Positions 10,401 to 56,589 of a stretch of 64,000 nt of DNA are shown piece by piece. Under the pieces are notes generated by a model. It made no database searches, was not told where the DNA came from, and saw nothing but the letters and a program-made list of their open reading frames with translations. The stretch is from Mobula hypostoma. Lineage: Eukaryota. Location: contig NC_086108.1 of the NCBI RefSeq assembly GCF_963921235.1, positions 17,050,001 to 17,114,000 on the forward strand. The letters are read 5' to 3'. The position numbers and the translations under genes are program-made. Every line of letters begins with the position of its first letter. Within the stretch, counting starts at the first letter, position 1.

Positions 10401-10686
10401 AAAACCAATGGATGAACCATGAGACTTCTAGTCTGCTGAGGGCTACATCTGTGGCATTCAAAACCTGTGATCAAGAACTATACAAGAAGTCCAGGTACAA
10501 CCTACAGAAGGCTATTTTAAGAGTGAAAAGAAAATTCCAATTGAAGTTAGAGATGGAGTTGGATGCGTGTCAGTTCTGACTGGGTTTGCCATGGCCTTGC
10601 TTCCTACAACGTGAACCTAACATCGTGAAGATCTGTGATGCTTCACTCCCAGATAAGCTCAACACCTTTTATGCACACTTTGAAAA

Positions 10687-11140
10687 TTATCCTGGTGGAG
10701 CTCACAGTACCAAGGGAGGAAGGATGTGAAAGGAGGAAAGCACTGGAGTACTAGTCCTTAGTCCAGGAGTGCAGGGATAAAAGATGGCAGAGGTGGCTAT
10801 TCCCCGTGGAGATTGGCTGTAGAGGATTCCTTGCAAGGTCAGTATGGAGGTTGTTGTTTGTGCTGGGAAATTGATGAAAAGAGCAAAAACCAAGCAGCTG
10901 GCAAGATGGGGAGAGGAGGCAGAAAGATCATCTTGCTGGATACGGAGCAGGTGAGAGGAGTTGAGCTGGAATTCAGAGGCAGATGGGCAGTGACTTGGCC
11001 ACCACTGCTGATCCACCTACTGGAGAGTGTAGCGGTTAAGCGTCAAAACACTCTTTGAAGGTTGGGCATCTGACGACATCTGCTCCTGGCCGAAGGCTAC
11101 GATCACCTCATCAGGTAACTGAAGAGAGCACTCCGGTGAA
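10687..11140 (+). mobile_element. HERO-type element 3' fragment (RLE C-terminus and 3' UTR)
   Basis: Reads IILVELTVP...WLFPVEIGCRGFLARSV; near-identical to 15212-15600 from 10747 onward. Confidence 0.8.
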
Positions 11141-12081
11141 TGATGGAAGCTTATTGTAGATATAGTTTTTGTTATTATGGATTGCAATGTACTGCTGTTG
11201 CAAGACAACAAATTTTGTGACAATGGGTACTTATAGATGGATGAAGCCCATGTGAATGGATACAACTTGGATTTAATAATTAATGCAGCAAGTGTACAAT
11301 TTTCCATTCGATGTGATCCTTATCCATTCTTTTATAATGTTTAACAGGATGTTTCTTTGATGAGATTAATACACTCTCTTGAGAGCAGTCTAGGCTACCA
11401 CGTCATGATTGCATATTGAATTATCTAGGCTACTTTTATGGAGTCTGTTACCAGAAAATGTTCACTGCTGCCAGTAACAGTCTGCTGTAATTAGTCTCTT
11501 TAAAACATTTTCTGAATTAATGTCCCCACCAATAATGAATTAAAATCTTTAAAGTCTATTTACTGTAGAGATAACTTATTTTCAAAAATTGTATAGAAGG
11601 AGTACAACATAAGAGCCATCAGCCACTGGATCAAGAATCCTTTGTACATGTGAGGATCTTTTTCAGGATGCCATCACACTTCAAGATGGCAAATGTCACA
11701 AGGGCAGGTTGTTTTTCATACCTTGCAGTTGCAAAATTCTATTGGTTTGAAATTATTGTTTGGAGAAGACTCATTGAGGTGCAGAGATATATATATGTTT
11801 GAAGCACATTATTGCAGAATTACATGTACTCTTTACTTCACAGAGGCTTTGTAGAGCATTTAGATAAGAGTATGACCATCAAAGTATGATGTTAGGATTA
11901 TAATTGTATGGATGCTTCATTCTTAAACATTTTGTTTTAGGAGCAATGCTTTAAGCCTAGACCTTTGAAAGAAACATTTTAAAGCCTAAATTGTTGGTAT
12001 GTTTGTTGATAAACCTTTAAAACTTTTCAATCTGCCAGGTCTCTTGCCAAGTCTCGTCAATATCCAATCTCTTCAATGACA

Positions 12082-15000: not shown

Positions 15001-15600
15001 CAAAGATCCCTAATCCAATTTGCTGCAAACTGCCAAATCATGGGAGATGAAGGTTGATGTGGAGAGGAAGCTGCAGTTCCCAGAGGTGATGCAAAACACA
15101 CTTCGACCAGACATCATACTGTGGTCCACCAAAGACAAGAAATCATCATGTTGCAGCTCACAGTACCATGGGTGGAAGAATTTGAGGAGGCTCGCGAGAG
15201 GAAAGCCCTGAAGTACTAGTCCTTAGTCCAGGAGTGCAGGGTAAAGGATGGCAGATGTGGCTATTCCCCGTGGAGATTGGCTGTAGAGGATTCCTTGCAA
15301 GGTCAGTATGGAGGTTGTTGCCTGTGCTGGGCAATTGATGAAAAGAGCAAGAACCAAGCAGCTGGCAAGATGGGGGGAGGAGGCAGAAAGATCATCTTGC
15401 TGGATACGGAGCAGGCGAGAGGAGTTGAGCTGGAATTCAGAGGCAGATGGGCAGTGACTTGGCCACCACTGCTGATCCACCTACTGGAGAGTGTAGCAGT
15501 TAAGCGTCAAAACACTCTTTGAAGGTTGGGCATCTGACGACATCTGCTCCTGGCCGAAGGCTACGGTCACCTCATCAGGTAACTGAAGAGAGCACTCCGG
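12082..15600 (+). mobile_element. HERO/NeSL-type RLE retrotransposon, near full length, degenerate
   Basis: RKERIRWPRSSD, AEPTWQEV, RT remnants, a CKLCG knuckle and LRPDIILWSTKD. Related to the element at 1-3990 but diverged and in the opposite orientation. Confidence 0.88.
14689..14804 (+). mobile_element. Short LINE/SINE 3' tail insertion with an (atgact)n end
   Basis: caataaagta(tgacta)n tail; cattg is duplicated at 14684-14688 and 14805-14809. The same tail recurs at ~45138-45175. Confidence 0.7.
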
Positions 15601-16854
15601 TGAATGATGGAAGCTTATTGTAGATATAGTTTTTGTTATTATGGATTGCAATGTACTGCTGTTGCAAGACAACAAATTTCGTGACAATGGGTACTTATAG
15701 ATGGATGAAGCCCATATGAATGGATACAACTTGGATTTAATAATTAATGCAGCAAGTGTACAATTTTCCATACAATGTGATCCTTATCCATTCTTTTATA
15801 ATGTTTAACAGGATGTTTATGATGAGATTAATACACTCTCTTGAGAGCAGTCTAGGCAACCACGTCATGATTGCATATTGAATTATCTAGGCTACTTTTA
15901 TGGAGTCTGTTACCAGAAAATGTTCACTGCTGCCAGTAACAGTCTGCTGTAATTAGTCTCTTTAAAACATTTTTTGAATTAATGTCAGCACCAATAGTGG
16001 ATTAAAGTCTTTAAAGTCTATTTACTGTAGAGATAACTTATTCTCAAAAATGGTGTAAAAGGAGTACAGTATAAGAGTTATCAGCCACTGGATCAAAAAT
16101 CCTTTGTACATGTGAGGGTCTTTTTCAGGATGCCATCACACTTCAAGATGGCAAATGTCACAAGGGCAGGTTATTTTTCATACCTTGCAGTTGCAAAATT
16201 CTATTGGTTTGAAATTATTGTTTGGAGAAGACTCGTTGAGGTGTAGAGATATATATATGTTTGAAGCACATTATTACAGAACTTAAATGTACTCTTTACT
16301 TCACAGAGGCTTTGTCGAGCATTTAGATAAGGGTATGTCCATCAAAGTGTGATGTTAAGCTTTATTCTTAAACATTTTGTTTTAGGAGCAACGAATAAAT
16401 TTGAATACTTTAAGCCTAGACCTTTGAAAGAAACATTTCAAAGCCCAAATTGTTGGTATGTTTGTAGATAAACCTTTAAAGCATTTCAGTCTGCCAGATC
16501 TCTTGCCAAGCCTGATCAATATTCAATCTCTTCAATGACATTGTGATGTGTTTGATGGATGAGCTCAAAGGATTATTGTGTTGATTCAGAAGCAATATGA
16601 TTCAGTGGGCAAAATTAGCTCAAATATAGTAAAACACTACATTAATTAATACTTACAAGGCATAAATCTACCCACTCTTAATACATAATAATCATATCTT
16701 GGAACTAAAATTAGCCATAATTTATCAGATAAGAACATTTTCAGATAATCATAATAATACTTTTTTTTCTTTCTTCAGGTACATTCCAAACAATTGTTTC
16801 AATAGAAATAAAAGTTGTAAGTTGATCTCCATATAGCAAGAGAATGCTGACACT

Positions 16855-25970: not shown

Positions 25971-27799
25971 TGAATTCTATATACCCTGTCACCTTCTGGG
26001 TTTAAAAACTTTTCATCACCTCCCTTTAATCCTTCTCCACTTGCTATATTCCCTAATTTTTGACATATCTGTTGGGGAAATAGGTACCTAATTTTGACTT
26101 CTTTGCTAGAAGTAATAGGTCTTCCCTATGTAAAGTATATACTGTACTTGGTCTCTCAATATTTTATGCAACTCAGTTAAGTCTGCATTCAAATTCTCTG
26201 AAGTCCCAGCCTATCCAATTTTTCCTTGCTGCTATCACTTCTCAGTCTTGACAAAATGTTCTGCATACAAATTGGGCAGATTGGTTTTCTGCAATTGTGC
26301 ATCAACTTCTCAAAAGTCCCTTTGACAGTCATTCCCATTTTCATTCCTTGCAATTGCTTTTAACCTTTCAGAACTGGGATGAAAGATCTACATAAATCTG
26401 TGAAAACAATCATTAAATGTTTTGTTTGTACACAGCATTCCTTTCCACCTGCTTTCCTTTTAAAATGTACCTCCACTGGAGGGTGAATACTTTAAACAAT
26501 CACTGGCTCTATCATTAGCACGGGAAGAAATTGGTACTGAAAGAGGATCTAGCACTTTCCTGGTGTAAATGATGAATAAACACTTCACGGGGTACCAGCT
26601 GGGTAACAGGTTTCGATTATAACAGACATTTCAATGATAAACTCTGCCATCTTCTTTAGGGATGAACTGGTTGAGGTTTACTGTGTATTGGATTTGGGCA
26701 AATACCAGATATACTTACTTACAGTGTTTCATTGAAATTACTTTTGATCCAATAACCAGTAGATATTCTTGTCATCCATGCTGCTACGTCATTATGAAGA
26801 TGCTCCCAAATGCAAGGGCCCCAAGGACCAACTATCCATAAGAACATAAGAAATAGGAGCAGGAGTTGGCCATCTGGCCCATTGAGCCTGCTCTGCCATT
26901 CAATAAGATCATGGCTGATCTGGTCATGGTCTCAACTCCACCTACCTGCCTTTTCCCCATTACCCTAATTCCCTACTACTCAAAAATCTATAGAAAAACA
27001 TAGAAAATAGGTGCAGGAGTAGGCCACAAGGCTATCTGACCTTGTCTTAAATATATTTACTACGGTGGCCTCCACTGATTTATTGGGCAGAGAATTCCAC
27101 AGATTCGCCAATCTCTGGGAAAAGCAGTTCCTCCTCATCTGCATCCTAAATCTACTGCCCCGAATCTTGAGGCTATGTCTCCTAGTTCTAGGCTCACCCA
27201 CCAGTGGAAATAACTTTCCTGCCTCTATCATCAATCCCTTTTATAATTTTATATGTTTCTATAAGATCTCCTCTCATCCTTCTGAATTCCAGTGAGTAGA
27301 CCCAGGCGACTCAATCTCTCCTCATAGTCTAACCCCCTCATCTCTGAAAAGAACCTGGTGAACCTCCTCTGCACCGCCTCCAAAGCCAGTATATCCTTCC
27401 TCAAGTAAGGAGACCAGAACTGCATGCAGTACTCCAGGTGTGGCCTCACCAGTACCCTGTATAGTTGCAGCATGACCTCCCTGCCCTTAACTTCAATCTC
27501 TCTAGCAATGAAGGCCATTTGCCTTCTTGATAGCCTGCTGCACCTGCAAACCAACATTTTATGATTCATTCACAAATATTCCCAAGTCCCTCTGCACAGC
27601 AGCATGTTGCAATTTTTTGCCATTTAAATAATAATCTGCTCTTTCATTTTTCCTTCCAAAGTGGATGACCTCACATTTACCAACATTGTACTCCATCTGC
27701 CCACTCACTTAACCCATCTATATCTCTCTGTAGACTCTCTGTATCCTCTGCACAATTTGCTTTTCCGCTCAACTTAGTATCATCAGTAAACTTAGATAC

Positions 27800-28465
27800 T
27801 GTCATGGTCTCCTAATTCCCTTTGATTGTGGCACACCTGATTCTCATCTAAACCTGCAGCATAAAAACCCTGGCTTTGCATCCACTCATTGCCAGATCGT
27901 TGCTTCAGTTTGTGTGGTTGTTCACGTTCTAGGCCGCTTAGAATTGTGTATTCTCATTTTTGTTTCCGTACTGTTTGCCTGTGTTAACCCTGTCTCTCAG
28001 CCACATAGAATTGCGTATTCTAAATTTTGTTCCCGTGCTGTTTGCCTGTGTTAACCCTGTCTCTCAACCGCTTAGAATTGTGTATTCTAAGTATTGTTTC
28101 CGTACTGTTGTTTGCCTGTGTTAACTCTGTCTCTCCATGTTAATAGGGGCGCTGCATGCCATCTGCCTTCCCGTTCATCCTTCTGCCTGCTGTTCTCCTC
28201 AATCCACGCTTGCACCTTGGTCTGCATCCCTGCTCTGCCTCATTCCGCTGCCCGCCTACATTCTCTGTTGGCTTGGTGGTTAAACGTCGCGTTCCTACCG
28301 CAGTGACCCGGGTTCGATCCCTGGTCAAGCCTCGCTTACTCCTCGGCTTTCCTCTGCCTAATCCTCGCTCCCCGGCCTTCCCTGCTACCATTAATAAACA
28401 CTCTTTAGATTACGCTACCTCCATGTCTGTGTCCTGCATTTGGGTTCACCCGTTCTACTGCAACA
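27800..28465 (+). mobile_element. Solo LTR with internal tandem repeats and a tRNA-like module
   Basis: TGTCA...CAACA termini; 5-bp TSD gatac (27795-27799, 28466-28470); TATA-like cataaaa at ~27860; AATAAA at 28393; three ~65-bp direct repeats at ~27934-28136. Confidence 0.88.
28262..28330 (+). pseudogene. tRNA-Glu-like sequence (Pol III A and B boxes) inside the LTR
   Basis: A box TGGCTTGGTGG (28269-28279), B box GGTTCGATCC (28311-28320), T-arm CCGGG/CCTGG. Colinear with vertebrate tRNA-Glu as I recall it; acceptor stem and anticodon arm are degenerate. Confidence 0.7.
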
Positions 28466-30474
28466 GATACACTACACTCGGTCCCCTCTTTTAATCATTA
28501 ATCTATATTGTGAATAGTTGTGGACCCAGCACCAACCCCTGTGCAACACCACTCACTACTGATTGCCAACCAGAGTAACACCCATGTATCCCCACTCTCT
28601 GCTTTCTATTAGTTAACCAATCCTCTATCCATGCTAATACATCACCCCCAACTCTATGCATCCTTATCTTATGGATAAGACTTTTATGTGCACCTTATCG
28701 AACGCCTTTTGGAAATCCAAGTAAATAATGCCCATCTGTTCCCCTCTACCCACTGTGCTCGTTATATCCTCAAAGAACTCCAGTAAGTTTGTCAAACAGG
28801 ACCTGCCTTTGCTGAATCCATGCCTTGCTATTTCTTCTTTAATGATAGCTTCAAGCATTTTCCCAACTACAGACTTTGGCCTTTAGTAACCTGCCTTTTG
28901 ACTACAGCCTTTTTTGAACAGTGGCGTGACATTCGCCATCTTCCAATCTGCTGGACCTGCCCAGAGTCCAGAAAAGTTTGGTAAACTGATCACCAAAGCC
29001 AGGTGGGCTGCCAGCGACGGTGGTGGAGGCTGATACGATAGGGTCTTTTAAGAGACTCCTGTCTAGGAGACTCCTACATGTCGCTCAGAAAAATAGAGGA
29101 CTATGGGTAACCTAAGGTAATTTCTAAGGTAAGGACATGTTCGGCACAGCTTTGTGGGCCGAAGGGCCAGTATTGTGCCCTATATTTTTTCTATGTGTTT
29201 TATATGTTTCTATAACTTCTGCCCTATCTTTCAGTACCCTAGGATGCATTCCATCAGGACCAGGGGACTTATCTATCTTCAGGCCCACCAGTTTGCTCGG
29301 CACTACCTCTTTAGTGTTAGCTATTGTATCAAGGTCCTCACCTCCAAGGCATCCATAACATCTCTCTTTGGGTATGTTAGATGTGTCCTCCACCATGAAG
29401 ACTGACACAAAATAGTCCTTCAAAGCTTTGGCCATTTCCTCCTTACCGAATATAAATTCCCCCTTCTCGTCCTCCAAGAGACCTAAGTTCACTTTAGCCG
29501 CATTTTTCCATTTTATATAATTATAAAAACTTCTACTATCAGATTCTATATTTTGTGCTAATTTATTTTCATAATCTACTTTCCCTTTCTTTATTGCTCG
29601 CTTAGTGGTACTTTGTTGTTTTTAAAAGTTTTCTCAATCTTCGTTTCCCACTACTCTTGGCACTTTGTATGCACGAGCTTTTAGTTTGATGTCTTCTTTT
29701 ATTTCCCTCGTTATCCAAGGCTGGTCTTCCGCACCCTTATCCTTGCTTTTAACTGGAATATACTTTTGTTGAGCACCGTGAAAAACCTCTTTGAAAATCT
29801 TCCATTGTTCCTCAACTGTCCTACCATATAGCCTGTGTTCCCAGTCTACACTAGCCAAATCCTCCCTTGTCCCAATGTAGTCTCCATTGTTTAGCCATAA
29901 TACACTGGTTGAGATCGAACTATTGCACCCCCATTTGTATGAGGAAGTCAATTATCCATGAGGAGGAGGAGCTGGAGTGGGTTCACTGGAAGAAGAGGAG
30001 GAGGAAGAGGAGGGGATGATTATAATGATAATGACTGTAGTACCTCATTGCGCCTGACATCCTGCATCATATCAAAGGAGAAAAGTAGATGTTACAGCAA
30101 TGAAGTTCAATTAGGAGATGTACTCAACACCAATATGCCTGGCACATGTCAGAGAGTATCTGGTATGGGAGCTTATTGCAAAGAAGGTCCACTGATCCAC
30201 CCTGTCTAAGGACTCTGATAATGTCCATAATTGAAATGTTTTCTTGACAATGCTGATACGAGTGCACATTTAGGTGGAGTGCTGGCTATTAGGCCTACTT
30301 CAGCAAATGCAAGAGGTGATGAGGAGCACAAAGAATTCCATTTACAAGCTCTCATCAGAAGTAACAGGCAGCCAGTAGATGCATCCGCAGGTTATGCAAA
30401 AGTAATACGCAGTCAGCAGACACACTCTGCAGATCATGTGCACAACTATACTGGGGATGATTAATAATCCTGCT

Positions 30475-42589: not shown

Positions 42590-44000
42590 ATCCACAAACT
42601 AAATCGCAGTCTCCATCGACCTCCAAATTGAAAATCGCAGGATCCATCGATCTCCAACTTGTAAATCGCAGGATTGCAGGCTCCATCAATCTCCAAATTT
42701 GTCATGGTCCTGTCTGGCTGTGCCCCATCTCGCTCCTATCTCCTTGATTATGCCTTAATTCCAGTCGTTAGATTCCCAATTGCTGCTAGTTCACTTAATT
42801 ACAGCACACCTGGTTTCCATCAGAGACTGCAGGATAAGAGCTCTGGCATCACAACCACGGGTTGCCAGTTCGTTGGTCTATTCCTGAGTGATAACTTTGT
42901 TTCTAGACCACCTAGAACCGTTAGTTCTAAGTTCAGTTCTAGTTTCAAGTTATTCCATGAAAACTTGACGTCTCCATGTCAAGACTCTATATCAGAGCTC
43001 CGTGTCAAGATTCCTCCTGGTTATCTGTTGCATGTTCGCGAACGTGCAAGCACCTCTTAACCCTATCTTCGTGCCTGTGTCCTGCACTTGGGTTCGCTTC
43101 AGTTGCTCCGTGTAACAAAATTATAAATTGCGGGCTCCATCCATCTCCAAACTGTAAATTGCAAGCGCCATTGATCTCCAAATTGTAAATCACAGGCTCC
43201 ATCCATCTCCAGATTGTAAATCACAGGCTCCATCCATCTCCAGATTGTAAATCACAGGCTCCATCCATCTCCAAATTGTAAATCACAGCTTCATCGATCT
43301 CCAAATTGTAAACTGCAGACTCCATCGATCTCCAAATTGTAAACTGCAGACTCCATCGATCACCAAATTGTAAATCACAGGCTCCATTGAACTCCAACTT
43401 GCAAATCACAGGCTCAATCAATCTTCAAACTGTAATTCGCATGCTCCATCGATCACCAAATTGTAAATCACAGGCTCAATCAATCTCCAAATCGTAAATC
43501 ACAGGCTTCATCAGTCTCCAAATTGTAAATCACAGGCTCCATTGATCTCCAACTTGCAAATCACAGGCTCAATCTATCTCCAAACTGTAAACCGCAGGCT
43601 CCATTGATCTCCAAATTGTAAATCGCAGCTCCATCCATCTCCAGATTGTAAATCACAGGCACCATTGATCTCCAAATTGTAAACCGCAGGCTCAATCAAT
43701 CTCCAAACTGTAAATCGCAGCTCCATCGATCTCCAAATTGTAAATCGCAGCTCCATCCATCTCCAGATTGTAAATCACAGGCACCATTGATCTCCAAATT
43801 GTAAACCGCAGGCTCCATCGATCTCCAAACTGTAAATCGCAGCTCCATCGATCTCCAAATTGTAAACCACAGGCTCCATCGATCACCAAATTGTAAATCG
43901 CAGCTCCATCGATCACCAAATTGTAAATCACAGGCACCATTGATCTCCAAATTGTTAATCACAGGCTCTATCGATCTCCAAATTGTAAATTGCCGGCTCT
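42590..44000. repeat. 30-31 bp minisatellite, interrupted by an LTR
   Basis: Unit tgtaaatcacaggctccatcgatctccaaat; roughly 28 copies at 43118-44000 and ~3 degenerate copies before 42700. Confidence 0.95.
42700..43117 (+). mobile_element. Solo LTR related to the LTR at 27800
   Basis: TGTCA...TAACA termini; 5-bp TSD aaatt (42695-42699, 43118-43122). Shares tgtcatggtc, gcacacctg...ctgcag and gtcctgca(c/t)ttgggttc with the 27800 LTR. Confidence 0.85.
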
Positions 44001-48640: not shown

Positions 48641-49590
48641 ATCGCCTTCAATTTGATAAACCTGTTATCTTCAGAGCCTTGTGTAAGTCTGTGATAACTG
48701 ACTCACAGCTGATACACAATTCCGAAATCGAAAGAAATGCAGAACGAAAAGCACTTTTTAAAATGATCTTTCAGATTCACTGCTGATATCACATCAACAT
48801 TGCTTTCAAATGATGAAATGAATTGAAATACCAGGTTGATTCCTGGCGAAATGTCAGCTTTATGTTGCATCTGCCTTAAATGAAATGTCTATCTTGTTCA
48901 CTTATTATTTACCCATTGGTCCCATTTTGGATTTGGTGACTAATCCGATCAATTATTCTACAGTAAAGCCAGACATGTGGCACTGAAAACCCCAGTAACT
49001 GAGAGCAGGGCCAAGGTTATCTTTTCCTCATCCAAGAGTTTTCTAACAGCAGTGTAAAAGCTATTCCTGAGCCCTGCGGTACTGTTCTCAAGATTTTGTA
49101 TCTTCTGCCCAACAGAGAGGGGAGAAGCAAATATGACTGGGGAGGGAAGGGTCCTTGATTATGTTATCTGCTTTCCTGAAACAGCGAGATCATAATGATT
49201 TTTGTGGATTCGTTTGATTGAGCTCATTTAAGAACAGGTTGCATGCTCCAGTTTCTTGAAACTGAAAGCAATCTTTAAACAATTAGATATTTTCATTTTC
49301 TATCCCTAATATTGTGTTTGCATCTTTTTAGGCACTTTGAGTCATTGTATCCCTTTGATTAGAGGTGACTGTGGGATGTCAACATGGCAGGACGTGAGAT
49401 CTCAGATGATTAGCAGCTTTCAAGCTCACATAACCATCACTGGAATGTTGGTACTGCTTCTTACAAGGACAAGTGTGCAACAAATTCGGCTCGCATATTG
49501 GACAGAAATGACTATTCTGAGCTCTCCAAAAGATATCCCTGATTCAGTCACTGGATACCAAATCCAAATGCTGTTACGCTCCAGAGAAAA

Positions 49591-50437
49591 ATGCAGGTCT
49601 TAAGAGGTAATGGGTCATCAAATAGAGATGCCAACCAACTGCTTAGGAATAGAACCTGCCTTGAACAGAACAAATCAAGAGACTGCATCCCTTCAGGAGG
49701 TGGCCTTGGGGACAACCATTATGAAGAAGAGATGAGCTCTGGTTTATGTCAATGTACTTACTTAACAGACAGCATCCTTAACCTTGAGGAGGGCCAATTC
49801 AATGGGGGCAAGAAATTCCCTTGCAAAGGCAACAAACAGGATCTGCCAAGAAGGATTGTGGAAGCAGTCACTTTGGAAAACTCTCCTTCAGTAAATGGGA
49901 AGAATCCTGCACAAAAAGGCAACACAAAAGATTGGAGTCCTGAAAAAGGATCCTGGAAAAAACTTGTAATAGAAAATATAGGACCAGTTGGTAGTGCAGA
50001 GAGACTTGATGATGAGATTCTTTCCGAGGAAACCTTTAATATTAGTGACTCTGGGGTTTGCAGAAGTCATTACATAAATGACTCTGGACCAAAGACTCTA
50101 TCAGAGAACCTTTCAAAAGTTAACACTTTAGATGATTCTGCTCTAAGGACTGGAGAGTGGAGTGTGGAAAATACAGACACGCTTGCCCATCTGAGTGGCC
50201 TTTGGAGGACAGATAGCTGGGAGGGTGTTGGCAGTAATGCCAGCTTGTTCTTTCTGTCAGAAAAGGTAGAACTCAACCATACCAAACTCAGACGAATGCT
50301 GTCGTCCTCTCATCGCCAGAGTGAACCTGGTATTGGCATTGAAAGCCATCCGCAGGAGAATCTTGCACAATCCAGCTCCCAACTTCAACCTTGCTTACTG
50401 GCTGACAGCTTCTCTAGGAACAAATATATCAAGCAAG
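49591..50437 (+). CDS. KIAA1614: Large coding exon of a KIAA1614-like gene (exon probably begins at 49332; coding start uncertain)
   Basis: Non-repeat open frame ending at the donor AAG|GTAAAT (50437). LSGLWRTDSWEGVGSNASLFFLSEKVELNHTKLRRML resembles recalled human KIAA1614 [37 protein letters not shown], and VTLQRKMQVLR resembles SVLESKVRALK. Acceptor catctttttag| at 49331. Confidence 0.75.
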
Positions 50438-53400
50438 GTAAATCATTTTCTGTCCAAAGACCCTTGTTATATTGTTTGGTTTGTTCATTTTTGTGTGATT
50501 CATTATCATTGGATTCCCTTCTTGACGCTGTCAATGTAACCCTTTGCTTCAAGGTGCAAATGCATACCGCTGGAGAACCTCAGCTGCGTCTGTGAAGGCA
50601 AAGTGATGGTTAATGTACTAGTTTGAGGTCCTGCATCAGGACTGAAATGAAGTTTAGTCTTTGTTGCAGAAAGAAACAGAGGGCCCAAGATTTTTCAGAT
50701 GGGAGATGGAGGTGTAGACTTCTCTACATGTAGAGATCCATGGTAAAAATGAGGTTCATGAGGAATTAGAAATGTTTAAAATGATAGAGGGCGTGAGATA
50801 TAGCTGGGAAGAGAAATGTTGAGAGGTAATAGGGTGGATTCAATCTTTTAAAAGATAAGTTCTGTGTGATCTGATGGAGGGTCTTGACTAAAAATATCAA
50901 CCATCTCTTTGCTTCCACATATGTTGTTTGACCCAATGATTCCCTCCAGCAGTTTATGTTTTCACTGCGGATTTCAGCATCTGCGGTCTCTTGTGTCTTC
51001 TCTACTTCAAAGTTTTGTCATTTAGCCAATTATAAATTTTGTCTTGACCCACGTTTCCCTCAACGGGATAAAGTAAAAAGAATGAGTTCATGACAGGGCT
51101 GACTATGGAAATTGAAGTCAATAGTTATTCTATCCACAGCAGTGCTTTTGTGTTCAAGCAGCAATTGAAAATATTGTTTTATTGCAATTTTTTTTCAGTT
51201 ACAATGAATTTATTGGAATTAGTTAGTGACACAGTACTTCAACGATTTGTGCTACTGCCACACTACTCCAGTATTTCATCCTGAGATGCTTTCTATGTGG
51301 AGCTTTCCCATTCTCCCTGTGGCTATGTGCTTCCTTTGGATGGTCCGGTTTTCTCCCACATGCCAAAGACATGCTGGTAGGTTAATCAGCTACTGTAAAT
51401 GATCCCTCAGGTAGGTGGATGACAAGAGAATTAGTAAGGAATGCATGTAAGAGAATGGACTTATTGGGAAAATAAATTGGTGGAATAGGATTGATGGGAA
51501 TCCTCTGAGAGGGAGCATCAGCTTGATGGGCCATGTCATGTTTTATAACTTCAAAACATTAAACTAATTCAAAGGAAGACACGGGAGTCGGAAATGTGTC
51601 TAACTTTGTGTTTACTTATTAAGATTACTCAAATATTACTGTAATATTAAATATACAGCAGGCCAGATGCTTTCCAACAGCAAAAAGATAAATATGAAAA
51701 TAAGATATAAAATATAAAGCTCTGTATAGAATATGTATACGTACATGTATCTGAATGCTGGGAAATCACGTTCGTGGGCTCGGGTAGTGGGGACAGAAGA
51801 GACTCACTACCAGTAAGTAGGTTAATTATTTATTTACAGGACACAACAGACATTAAATGTTCAGAAAACCCTTCAAGCTGAACTCAGTTACAGATGCTGA
51901 GCGCCCGAAGTGGCAGGACAAAACAGACATGGTGGCAAATACTGATATAAAGTGTGCACCTGGGCCCCTTTCACTGCAACACACTCTACTGTTTCTGTGG
52001 CACCCTCGACTACCAGGTCCGTATGGTCTGAAAAGAGTTACTGCACATTAGATTTAAACACTACCAGCACTATGATGTCATCAGCTAAATGTCAAGTAGT
52101 GAGAGGGGCTGCAGTGCTCCTTACACAGGCCAATCCTTAGCTAGTAAGTGGGGAGCAACTTACGCTGAACAGGTAAGATGGACACTTACTGCAACAGCTG
52201 GCCAGCAAGTTTAAAGACAGCTCTTATTTGTAGAAAAAGAGAAACAAAGAAATAAACTTATTGCTGAAGACAAGTCTCCCCTGTACTTTATACTTCATAG
52301 GCTGGGGAACTCTCATATCTATCAGTAAATTAATTACATTTTCTCCCTGTATTGCCTGATTATAGATCCTCTTTCCATGATGTCATTTGTTTTTCTCAAC
52401 CTTTGGAATGTGATTGGACTCAGATGCCACCATATATAGAATTATCTCAATGCTCTGAATAGAAAGTGCTAGAAAAATTCATCAGGTTAGGCATCTGTAG
52501 AAAAAGAAACAGGTCAAAGACTCTTCATCTATAGTGAAGAGATATGGAGTTATTGGTATTTAATAGGATATGTGGGAAGGTCTATTTGGCTTATATACTA
52601 TATCCGTAGATTCCCCTTTTCTCTTCATACATTCCTTGGAATGAAGCTGAAACAGATTCCCAAGCATTGTTTATCCTCTTTAATCCAGCTAAGTATTCAC
52701 TTTTAATTTCCTTTATCCTCTCCCATCCTGTTGAACTTAATTTAGTAACTAACTAGTACCTGGTGAAGTCCTGTTTACTGAACACCAGTGCAGCCACATT
52801 CAACAATCAACAGTTAGGTGGAGGGTGAGCAGCCAGAGGTTACTAATGACCTAGGTAGAAATGGGAAGTGGTCCTGTGTAGTGAGTATAAGGAGTTAGGA
52901 AAGAGGCTGAAGAAGTTAGTCTTCTCTGGATTACTCCAGGATTAAGTACTAGCATGGCAGCAATAGGATGATAGTACAGATGAACTGGTGCAGGGGACAG
53001 GCTTTCTAGCTCTTGGATCATTGGAATCTCCTCTGGGGCTCAGGTGACCTGTACAAGAGGGATGGTTGCACCTAAATTGGACGGGAATCAATACCCTGGC
53101 CAGAGGTTTGCAAGTGTTGCTCAGGACGGTTTAAACTAGTCTGGCAGTCTGGTTTGACCTGAACAAGAGCTCCAGGTCAGAAAGTAGAGGAATAGAGAGG
53201 AAGGTAGCTGGCAGGGCCAATAAAAACAGGCAGGAGCAAAGCAATACATATTTGACGGGACGGATAGTTTGAAGTTTGTGTATTTTAATGCTCAGAGTAT
53301 TATTAATGGTAAAAGTGATGAAAGAGCATGGATGAAAGAGCATGGAACATGGAACTACGATTGAGAAATAGTTTGTCCTCAGAAGATGGAGGGTAGTGGT

Positions 53401-53978: not shown

Positions 53979-54741
53979 CCGCAACACACATAAAAATTGC
54001 TGGTGAACGCAGCAGGCTAGGCAGCATCTCTAGGAAGAGGTACAGTTGACGTTTCGGGCCGAGACCCTTCGTCAGGACTAACTGAAAGAAGAGATAGTTA
54101 GAGATTTGAAAGTGGGAGGGGGAGAGCGAGATCTGAAATGATAGAAGAAGACAGGAGGGAGAGGGATGGAGCTAAGAGCTGGAAAGTTGATTGGCAAAAG
54201 GGATATGAGAGGACAGAGGGAGAAAAAGGAGAGAGAGGAAAAAAATAATAATAAAAGATAAATAACGGATGGGGTACGAAGGGGAGGTGGGGCATTAACA
54301 GAAGTTAGAGAAGTCAATGTTCATCCGCTATTTATTTATCTTTTATTATTATTATTATTATTACTATTTTTCTCTCTCTCCTTTTTCTCCCTCTCACTAT
54401 ACTCCTTGCCCATCCTCTGGGCTTCCCCCCTCCCCCTTTCTTTCTCCCTAGGCCTTACGTCTGTCCCATGATCCTCTCATATCCCCTTTGCCAATCAGCT
54501 TTCCAGCTCTTGGCTCCATCCCTCCCCCTCCTGTCTTCTCCTATCAGTTTGGATCTCCCCCTCCCCCTCCCACTTTCAAATCTCTTACTAGCTCTTCTTT
54601 CAGTTAGTCCTGACAAAGGGTCTCGGCCCGAGACGTCGACTGTACCTCTTCCTAGAGATGCTGCCTGGCCTGCTGCGTTCACCAGCAATTTTTATGCGTG
54701 TTGCTTGAATTTCCAGCATCCGCAGATTTCCTCGTGTTTGT
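53979..54741. mobile_element. PLE insertion made of two inverted pseudo-LTR segments
   Basis: A minus arm (53979-~54325) and a plus arm (~54326-54741) are reverse complements of each other over ~230 bp. 14-bp TSD gttcactaggatgc (53965-53978, 54742-54755). Confidence 0.9.
54041..54084 (-). ncRNA. Minimal type I hammerhead ribozyme motif
   Basis: The reverse complement reads cagttagtc-CTGACGA-agggtctcggccc-GAAA-cGTC-aactg. Confidence 0.75.
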
Positions 54742-55315: not shown

Positions 55316-56130
55316 GGACCTGTCCCTGAACTATACTGTTCTGTTTCAATCTGGCCAAGGGACCTGTCCCTGAACTGTACTATTCTGTGTCCAATCTGGC
55401 CAAGGGACCTGTCCCTGAACTATACTGTTCTGTGTTTCAATCTGACCAAGGGACCTGTCCCTGAACTATACTGTTCTCTGTTTCAATCCGGCCAAGGGAC
55501 CTGTCCCTGAACTATACGGTTCTCTGTTTCAATCTGGCCAAGGGACCTGTCCCTGAACTATACTGTTCTCTGTTTCAATCCGGCCAAGGGACCTGTCCCT
55601 GAACTATACTGTTCTCTGTTTCAATCCGGCCAAGGGACCTGTCCCTGAACTATACTGTTCTATGTTCCAATCTGGCCAAGGGACCTGTCCCTGAACTATA
55701 CTGTTCTATGTTCCAATCTGGCCAAGGGACCTGTCCCTGAACTATACTGTTCTATGTTCCAATCTGGCCAAGGGACCTGTCCCTGAACTATACTGTTCTA
55801 TGTTCCAATCTGGCCAAGGGACCTGTCCCTGAACTATACTGTTCTATGTTCCAATCTGGCCAAGGGACCTGTCCCTGAACTATACTGTTCTATGTTCCAA
55901 TCTGGCCAAGGGACCTGTCCCTGAACTATACTGTTCTATGTTCCAATCTGGCCAAGGGACCTGTCCCTGAACTATACTGTTCTATGTTCCAATCTGGCCA
56001 AGGGATCTGTCCCTGAACTGTAGTGTCCTCTGTTTCAATCCGGCCAAGGGACCTGTCCCTGAACTGTAGTGTCCTCTGTTTCAATCTGGCCAAGGGACCT
56101 GTCCCTGAACTATACTGTTCTATGTTCCAA
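55316..56130 (+). repeat. 46-bp minisatellite, ~17-18 copies
   Basis: Unit ggccaagggacctgtccctgaactatactgttctatgttccaatct; the central copies are identical. Confidence 0.97.
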
Positions 56131-56589
56131 TATGGCTGCTGGTTTTTTTCTCTCATGATGAGAACATTGTTTTATTCCCCCCTCCCCCCAACTTACTTCA
56201 GCAAATCCCTTACTGTCTTGTACTGCTTACGTAATAGTTGCCAGCAAAAGTCTTTCTGCAATTGGTCCATGCAAGCACTAAATGAAACAAGTCAACTGTG
56301 CAGAGCATGTGACGTTAAACTGTTGGATTGTTGAGGTACTGAGGTCTCATGCTTCTACTTTTCGAAACTCAGGACCTTAACTATTCATATCCTGGCTATT
56401 ATTTATCCCACAATCAACATTTCTAAAAACATATTATCTGATGATTATCATGTGGTTGCTTGTGGGAGTTTACCCAGATTGGCTTCTGCATTTCCTCCAC
56501 TGTGACTGCACTTCAGGAGTATTTCAGTATCTGTGAAGTGGTTATGATGTTGTTAAAAAAAATATGTGGCAGACAATATGTAAGTGAAA

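Follow-up and report, generated by a model that had tools for sequence, protein, structure and literature searches.

A tRNA-derived module shared by copies of a long terminal repeat family, seen in a solo LTR inserted into a CR1 LINE of Mobula hypostoma

The stretch of DNA analysed here (the window; 64,000 nucleotides) is a repeat-rich eukaryotic sequence whose long open reading frames resemble pieces of LINEs. At positions 27800 to 28465 of its forward strand it contains a solo long terminal repeat (LTR) of 666 bp, which begins with TG, ends with CA and is bordered by the 5-mer GATAC on either flank (27795 to 27799 and 28466 to 28470). The sequences on both sides are consecutive pieces of a single decayed reverse transcriptase frame (ORF2) of a CR1-type LINE on the minus strand, whose portion downstream of the insertion lies at 27028 to 27794 and whose upstream portion lies at 28471 to 29339; with another CR1 copy of the window, itself recognized by RVT_1, as tblastn query, residues 166 to 235 matched to the right of the LTR and residues 239 to 277 to the left. 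Parts of the LTR are also present in twenty public runs under ten organism labels, and four of these runs were compared over positions 27700 to 28570 at 80% likeness. X1, X5 and X9 are DNA-type runs under three organism labels (the kind of X9 is not on record), for which 24 contig pieces are listed, with the longest favoured, beside 9622 further ones. Contigs in which the CR1 element is uninterrupted (59, 59 and 33 in X1, X5 and X9, respectively) show loose ends at 27799, beyond which their sequence runs on as that of the right flank. Because they rejoin past the right duplication, the target-site duplication is 5 bp long. The termini, the flanking 5-mers and the empty sites thus bear out the claim of the initial annotation that the LTR is bounded by a target-site duplication, and the locus is a true solo LTR inserted into a CR1 LINE. 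At the 5' end of the LTR, other copies commonly have a longer part, as X1 and X5 each contain 30 contigs with loose ends before 27808 and X5 has 22 with loose ends before 27834; the copy studied here may be a member of a shorter subfamily or may have lost sequence close to its 5' end.

A second, related solo LTR of 418 bp lies at 42700 to 43117 (forward strand) within a 31-bp minisatellite; it has a 5-bp duplication (AAATT) and no AATAAA. Since a global alignment of the two LTRs is misleading past the promoter block, they were compared by local blocks, which shows that they have in common their first 10 nt, a block of 157 nt (27809 to 27965 in the longer LTR; 66% identity) and a 3', U5-side block of 36 nt (28412 to 28447; 30 of 36 positions, 83%). 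The 157-nt block includes a TATA-like box, CATAAAA, at 27860 to 27866, which likely belongs to a Pol II promoter. An initiator-like site identified by eye follows at 27886 to 27901 together with a 12-mer (27890 to 27901), which we regard as a candidate transcript start and self-primer; the 12-mer is identical at 11 of 12 positions in both LTRs of the window and lies 30 nt past the TATA-like box in each. The 5' part is rich in T (35 to 43%). Towards the other end of the longer LTR, at 28393 to 28398, is an AATAAA polyadenylation signal, so that the tRNA-shaped segment noted initially indeed lies between these two signals, both of which were found as described. The LTR at 42700 had been said to share its ends with the longer LTR and to lack this segment; the latter is correct, while the common 157-nt block goes beyond the ends. 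As this relative possesses the promoter and 3' blocks and no tRNA-like module, the module is dispensable in the wider group. The minisatellite that it splits (42601 to 43999) has about 28 units after the LTR and 2.4 before it. Between the promoter region and the module, the longer LTR includes an internal tandem repeat of 2.9 units of 67 bp with 86% matches (27939 to 28135). In this region a joint from 27908 to 28068 omits 159 bases in X1 and X9, and the sequences suggest that the number of 67-bp units differs between LTR copies.

The tRNA-derived module itself extends, in the classical register, from 28262 to 28332, with an A box at 28269 to 28279 and a B box at 28311 to 28321, the latter within an intact T arm (28308 to 28324). 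The Rfam tRNA model (RF00005) matches positions 28270 to 28332 with 31.3 bits, i.e. 2.3 bits above the gathering score of 29, and the covariance model check proposed for the module thus gave a significant result (E-value 2.9e-4 on 1.3 kb and 0.014 on the whole window). In the classical register and with G-U pairs included, the T stem is paired at all 5 positions, the anticodon stem at 4 of 5 and the D stem at 2 to 3 of 4, against 3 of 7 in the acceptor stem. The A box, the B box and the T arm have accordingly been kept, in agreement with the initial annotation, which had also described the acceptor and anticodon stems as eroded; this holds for the acceptor stem, while erosion of the anticodon stem is only mild. 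The small excess over the Rfam cut-off, a negative ARAGORN result for the module region and folding z-scores between -1.2 and -2.1 might suggest that the likeness to a tRNA arose by chance in a C/T-rich stretch of the LTR. We consider this hardly tenable in view of both E-values and of the occurrence of the A-box to B-box pattern (defined after the site had been seen) in only 5 of 2000 dinucleotide-shuffled versions of the LTR; in addition, other copies are more tRNA-like at 28287, at 28322 and in the anticodon arm.

As ARAGORN called no tRNA and the acceptor stem is paired at only 3 of 7 positions in the classical register, the module is not functional as a tRNA here, and a functional tRNA gene was rejected. 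In an alternative register, a helix with 7 of 7 pairs forms between 28270 to 28276 and 28325 to 28331, in which the A-box strand pairs with the 3' end of the module. This helix closes a fold without a D arm, which is the register used by Rfam; its z-score is -2.09, and equal stability was reached in 7 of 200 shuffles. Two positions of the helix differ in five X9 contigs. Insertion of a tRNA-derived SINE (SINE2) was likewise discarded: neither an A-tail nor CCA follows 28332, the 7-mers flanking the module match worse in other copies, and a second copy of the module was not found within the window. LTR copies of this kind pass the Rfam cut-off for tRNAs and can thereby inflate counts of tRNA genes or pseudogenes.

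The initial annotation derived the module from tRNA-Glu. At the anticodon position the copy studied here reads CCT, and most copies have C at the third position; some support comes from three X9 contigs, which have CTC. By the genetic code, an anticodon CTC or TTC denotes Glu. Compared by eye, the anticodon arm with CTC matches a tRNA fragment that is shown without a label in PMC12025293 and has CTC in its loop; read in this way, the fragment would likewise be of Glu type. Similarity to annotated phage tRNAs was uninformative for the isotype, with short matches only (E-values of 2 to 7). From the sequences available, a Glu origin of the module is plausible.

The tRNA-like segment could also be a single-copy accident, namely a SINE head or tRNA retrocopy that landed after the LTR had inserted. 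This would fit the neighbouring LTR at 42700, which has no module, and the 7-mers at 28253 to 28259 and 28333 to 28339, which match at 6 of 7 positions in the copy studied here and had been considered as a possible decayed duplication around the module. C is, however, present at 28337 in over 90% of the depth in all three DNA-type runs, and with this majority letter the match falls to 5 of 7, so that the proposed mini-duplication did not hold; the missing A-tail and CCA also count against an insertion of this sort. Summed depth, which is no measure of copy number, is 6- to 8-fold lower at 28270 to 28299 than at 28330 to 28359, and 3 of 15 among the joints listed (77 further ones exist) skip the module, which speaks against complete fixation. 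Dips of similar size are nevertheless found at 28000 to 28029 and 28150 to 28179, and the clipped ends within the module dip are tRNA-like. Of the 24 pieces listed, 14 (5 of 8 in X1, 6 of 8 in X5 and 3 of 8 in X9) bridge the module and extend at least 31 letters past it in both directions. The bridging pieces show 29 to 55 differences and 0 to 4 gaps relative to the LTR at 27800 (81 to 86% identity), which indicates that they represent other loci. They refute a one-off insertion unless they are orthologues or segmental duplicates, which is opposed by the degree of identity and by the presence of several distinct contigs per run. We therefore regard a one-off origin as very improbable indeed: the module is, as the initial annotation had asked, a feature of the LTR family, present under three organism labels.

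The other copies also show how the module has changed. At each of the positions 28261, 28266, 28287 and 28296 a difference from the LTR at 27800 is shared by 37 to 52 contigs per run; at the upstream comparison positions between 28148 and 28217 shared differences occur in 15 to 54 contigs, and the counts in the module are equal or higher. Altogether the module of the LTR at 27800 differs from most of its relatives at at least five positions. In most copies C occupies both 28287 and 28322, so that one G-U pair each in the anticodon and T stems becomes a G-C pair, and the 3' half of the A box is closer in five X9 contigs; C at 28266 in other copies breaks one acceptor pair. The better-kept T and anticodon stems of the other copies fit a young capture, and they also fit selection on the module. 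X18, a run guessed to be RNA, has shallow cover over parts of the LTR and none over 28150 to 28299, and thus provides no evidence either way.

We consider it reasonably probable that a piece of a tRNA, either a tRNA-Glu gene or a SINE head, was captured once in the R region of a likely Gypsy (Tf1/sushi-type) LTR and has since been inherited as a passenger, while the predicted Pol II promoter upstream would drive the element. Judging from motifs only, the transcript would start near 27888 to 27890, about 370 nt before the module, and would end past the AATAAA, and with these predicted borders the module would lie within R. An ancestral element may have gained the tRNA-Glu gene piece or SINE head in R by template switching or by insertion. 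Since each round of reverse transcription places a copy of R in both LTRs, such a piece could spread with the family, and a function would not be needed. Pol II transcription would still proceed from the upstream box to the AATAAA, and if the element is self-priming, an RNA starting at the module would be without a primer. Recombination between two LTRs would then have generated the solo copy at 27800, which would have decayed beyond its relatives afterwards.

The assignment of the LTR to Gypsy/sushi elements is likely, judged from its sequence. Sushi-type elements make 5-bp duplications, the length also found here, and the reverse complement of the 12-mer at 27890 to 27901 presumably resembles the primer sites of fish sushi-type elements. 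Sushi LTRs are described as having a 5' TGTYANR, a TATA-like stretch, a T-rich U3, an AATAAA near the 3' end and a 3' motif CNTNACA (PMC3601003, accessible text). Both LTRs of the window begin with TGTYANR (which fits rGmr1, too), and the TATA-like stretch, the T-rich 5' part and an AATAAA close to the 3' end also agree with Tf1/sushi LTRs; the 3' motif, in contrast, has two mismatches in the LTR at 27800 and one in the LTR at 42700. In Tf1/sushi elements, the opening bases of the element's RNA themselves serve as the primer for reverse transcription (PMC6317226, PMC4600332, 10.1101/2022.12.06.519325, each in its accessible part), and the conserved 12-mer is located at the predicted transcript start, which is where such self-primers lie. 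The pretzel model of self-priming predicts a side duplex, which was not supported, as a duplex just as good was obtained with 623 of 3000 random 20-mers for the LTR at 27800 and with 1985 of 3000 for the LTR at 42700. The accessible text of these descriptions (PMC3601003, PMC6317226, PMC4600332, 10.1101/2022.12.06.519325) makes no mention of a tRNA-derived segment in the LTR.

An internal region was found neither in the window nor in the fetched loci, and the loose ends listed for the public contigs include none at the 3' side. Searches of public collections for relatives or a full-length element returned 0, 0, 0, 3, 3 and 0 loci from viral contigs, 3 from metagenome contigs, 9 from prokaryote genomes and none from plasmids, and all 18 fetched loci (L001 to L018) proved unrelated to either LTR. 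The three metagenome contigs (L001 to L003) have only the B-box stretch in common with the module, L004 to L006 have 24-nt matches in antisense orientation inside long viral open reading frames, and L007 to L018 have no BLAST match to either LTR. A primer site and pol did not turn up either, so that the superfamily, the autonomy and the self-priming of the element are putative. The metagenome contigs contain tRNA-like segments with A and B boxes at L001 77 to 98, L002 6665 to 6686 and L003 10001 to 10022, for which ARAGORN was negative; these may be heads of SINEs, or pieces resembling Helenus, from unrelated eukaryotes.

Rather than being a passenger, the module might contribute to a Pol II-driven element through a B box that is under selection, acting either as an insulator to which TFIIIC binds or as an additional promoter for a short Pol III RNA. 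Consistent with this, the B box and T arm are intact in an old copy that has diverged by 14 to 19% from its relatives, the module is common to copies under three organism labels, and its observed/expected CpG ratio is 0.98 compared with 0.30 for the window. The whole LTR is, however, also richer in CpG than the window (0.67), this copy departs from most relatives at five or more module positions, and a relative of the type at 42700 has spread without the module. Selection on the B box thus seems quite unlikely to us. A more specific form of this idea, namely a self-priming, Pol II-transcribed vertebrate Gypsy lineage with a selected tRNA-Glu-derived module in both LTRs that either binds TFIIIC or, mimicking a D-armless tRNA, is cut, appears rather improbable. 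If it were true, every insertion and every solo LTR would bring along both a Pol II promoter and a Pol III box or insulator, and TRIMp3, described for miniature non-autonomous elements, would come to include full-size LTRs and cartilaginous fishes as hosts.

The idea of an LTR/SINE hybrid, put forward in the initial annotation, has already been published, vertebrates included, so that an earlier description, one of the refuting conditions named there, exists for the kind of element. Helenus or TRIMp3 elements (Kojima 2024, PMC10886601, accessible text) are miniature LTR elements with tRNA-derived segments in their LTRs, known from fungi, animals and one plant, and their vertebrate hosts comprise coelacanth, sturgeon, paddlefish and ostariophysan fishes. 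Their LTRs measure 104 to 323 bp and the complete elements 311 to 1263 bp, the underlying screen having been directed at elements below 1000 bp; animal Helenus elements have 4-bp duplications and tRNA primers (PMC10886601, accessible text). Capture of a SINE or tRNA was proposed as their origin, and promoter or insulator roles were proposed for the captured part (PMC10886601, in the part accessible). The present family is not in the accessible table of PMC10886601, and its Table S1, as far as accessible, includes no cartilaginous fish.

The LTR at 27800 could be a large Helenus-like, non-autonomous element, in which the module acts as a working Pol III promoter and the RNA is copied by the enzymes of another element. 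It resembles Helenus in having a tRNA-derived segment in the LTR with the A and B boxes kept and the cloverleaf eroded, most clearly at the acceptor, in being multi-copy and in occurring as a solo LTR. TRGCY and YGG, the A-box motifs of Helenus, are present together with its B-box motif GGTTC, the module is better kept in relatives, and both vertebrate hosts and solo LTRs are on record for Helenus (PMC10886601, accessible text). Downstream of the module the LTR lacks a stretch of four T (the first is at 28489) but has an AATAAA; the coelacanth Helenus LTR shows both features as well, so that they are compatible with Pol III use. In contrast to Helenus, the LTR measures 666 bp (532 bp minus two tandem units), and two such LTRs would add up to 1332 bp, more than the longest Helenus element as given in the accessible text, or to 1064 bp minus two tandem units. 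In addition, the duplication is 5 bp long rather than the 4 bp of those animal Helenus elements for which a value was determined, and a TATA-like block lies 400 nt upstream of the module and is common with the module-less relative. Outside the boxes, inspection by eye revealed no likeness to the accessible vertebrate Helenus LTRs. Owing to its size and duplication length we do not class the LTR as Helenus, and a Pol III-driven element of this kind is conceivable but unlikely.

Insertion of a small-RNA gene piece into an LTR also links the family to Cassandra and Ajax, short TRIMs with a piece of 5S rRNA in the LTR; in Cassandra transcription starts in this module (PMC10886601, accessible text). 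The two differ from the LTR at 27800 in being short and in containing 5S rRNA instead of a tRNA. Repbase LTRs other than TRIMs with tRNA-like parts were set aside in section 3.1 of PMC10886601, in which the families are unnamed as far as the text is accessible, and the family described here may be of this kind; it may also be already catalogued in Repbase or Dfam. In the literature covered by our search, which comprised few subscription journals, tRNA-bearing LTRs are described only as Helenus, and there is no report of them from cartilaginous fishes or among sushi-type LTRs. The family is known in concept and distinct from Helenus in size, in duplication length and in its retained predicted Pol II signals, and probably also in its host group.

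Capture of tRNA sequence by LTRs is thus not confined to the miniature Helenus elements, as it is here found in a full-size LTR with Pol II signals and in several related genomes. The family could represent an intermediate between an ordinary LTR and a TRIM driven by Pol III, a route that has been proposed by Kojima (PMC10886601, accessible text). As module-bearing copies exist beside module-less relatives in one genome, it becomes testable if selection maintains a captured B box or if the box is simply carried along. If the module is a passenger only, as we favour, the family is a modest addition to repeat annotation.

Several other features were noted in the window. Two segments at 10684 to 12081 and 15140 to 16540 form a direct duplication of 1.4 kb with 92% identity at a distance of 4.46 kb. 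A stop-free frame of 350 codons on the forward strand (49543 to 50595), for which no Pfam match was obtained, may represent a large host-gene exon. An inverted pair at 53981 to 54704, with arms of 233 nt that are 93% complementary and 258 nt apart, yields sub-threshold matches to plant miRNAs in Rfam and probably consists of two repeat copies arranged head to head. Finally, positions 55316 to 56136 are occupied by a minisatellite with 17.9 units of 46 bp and 95% matches.
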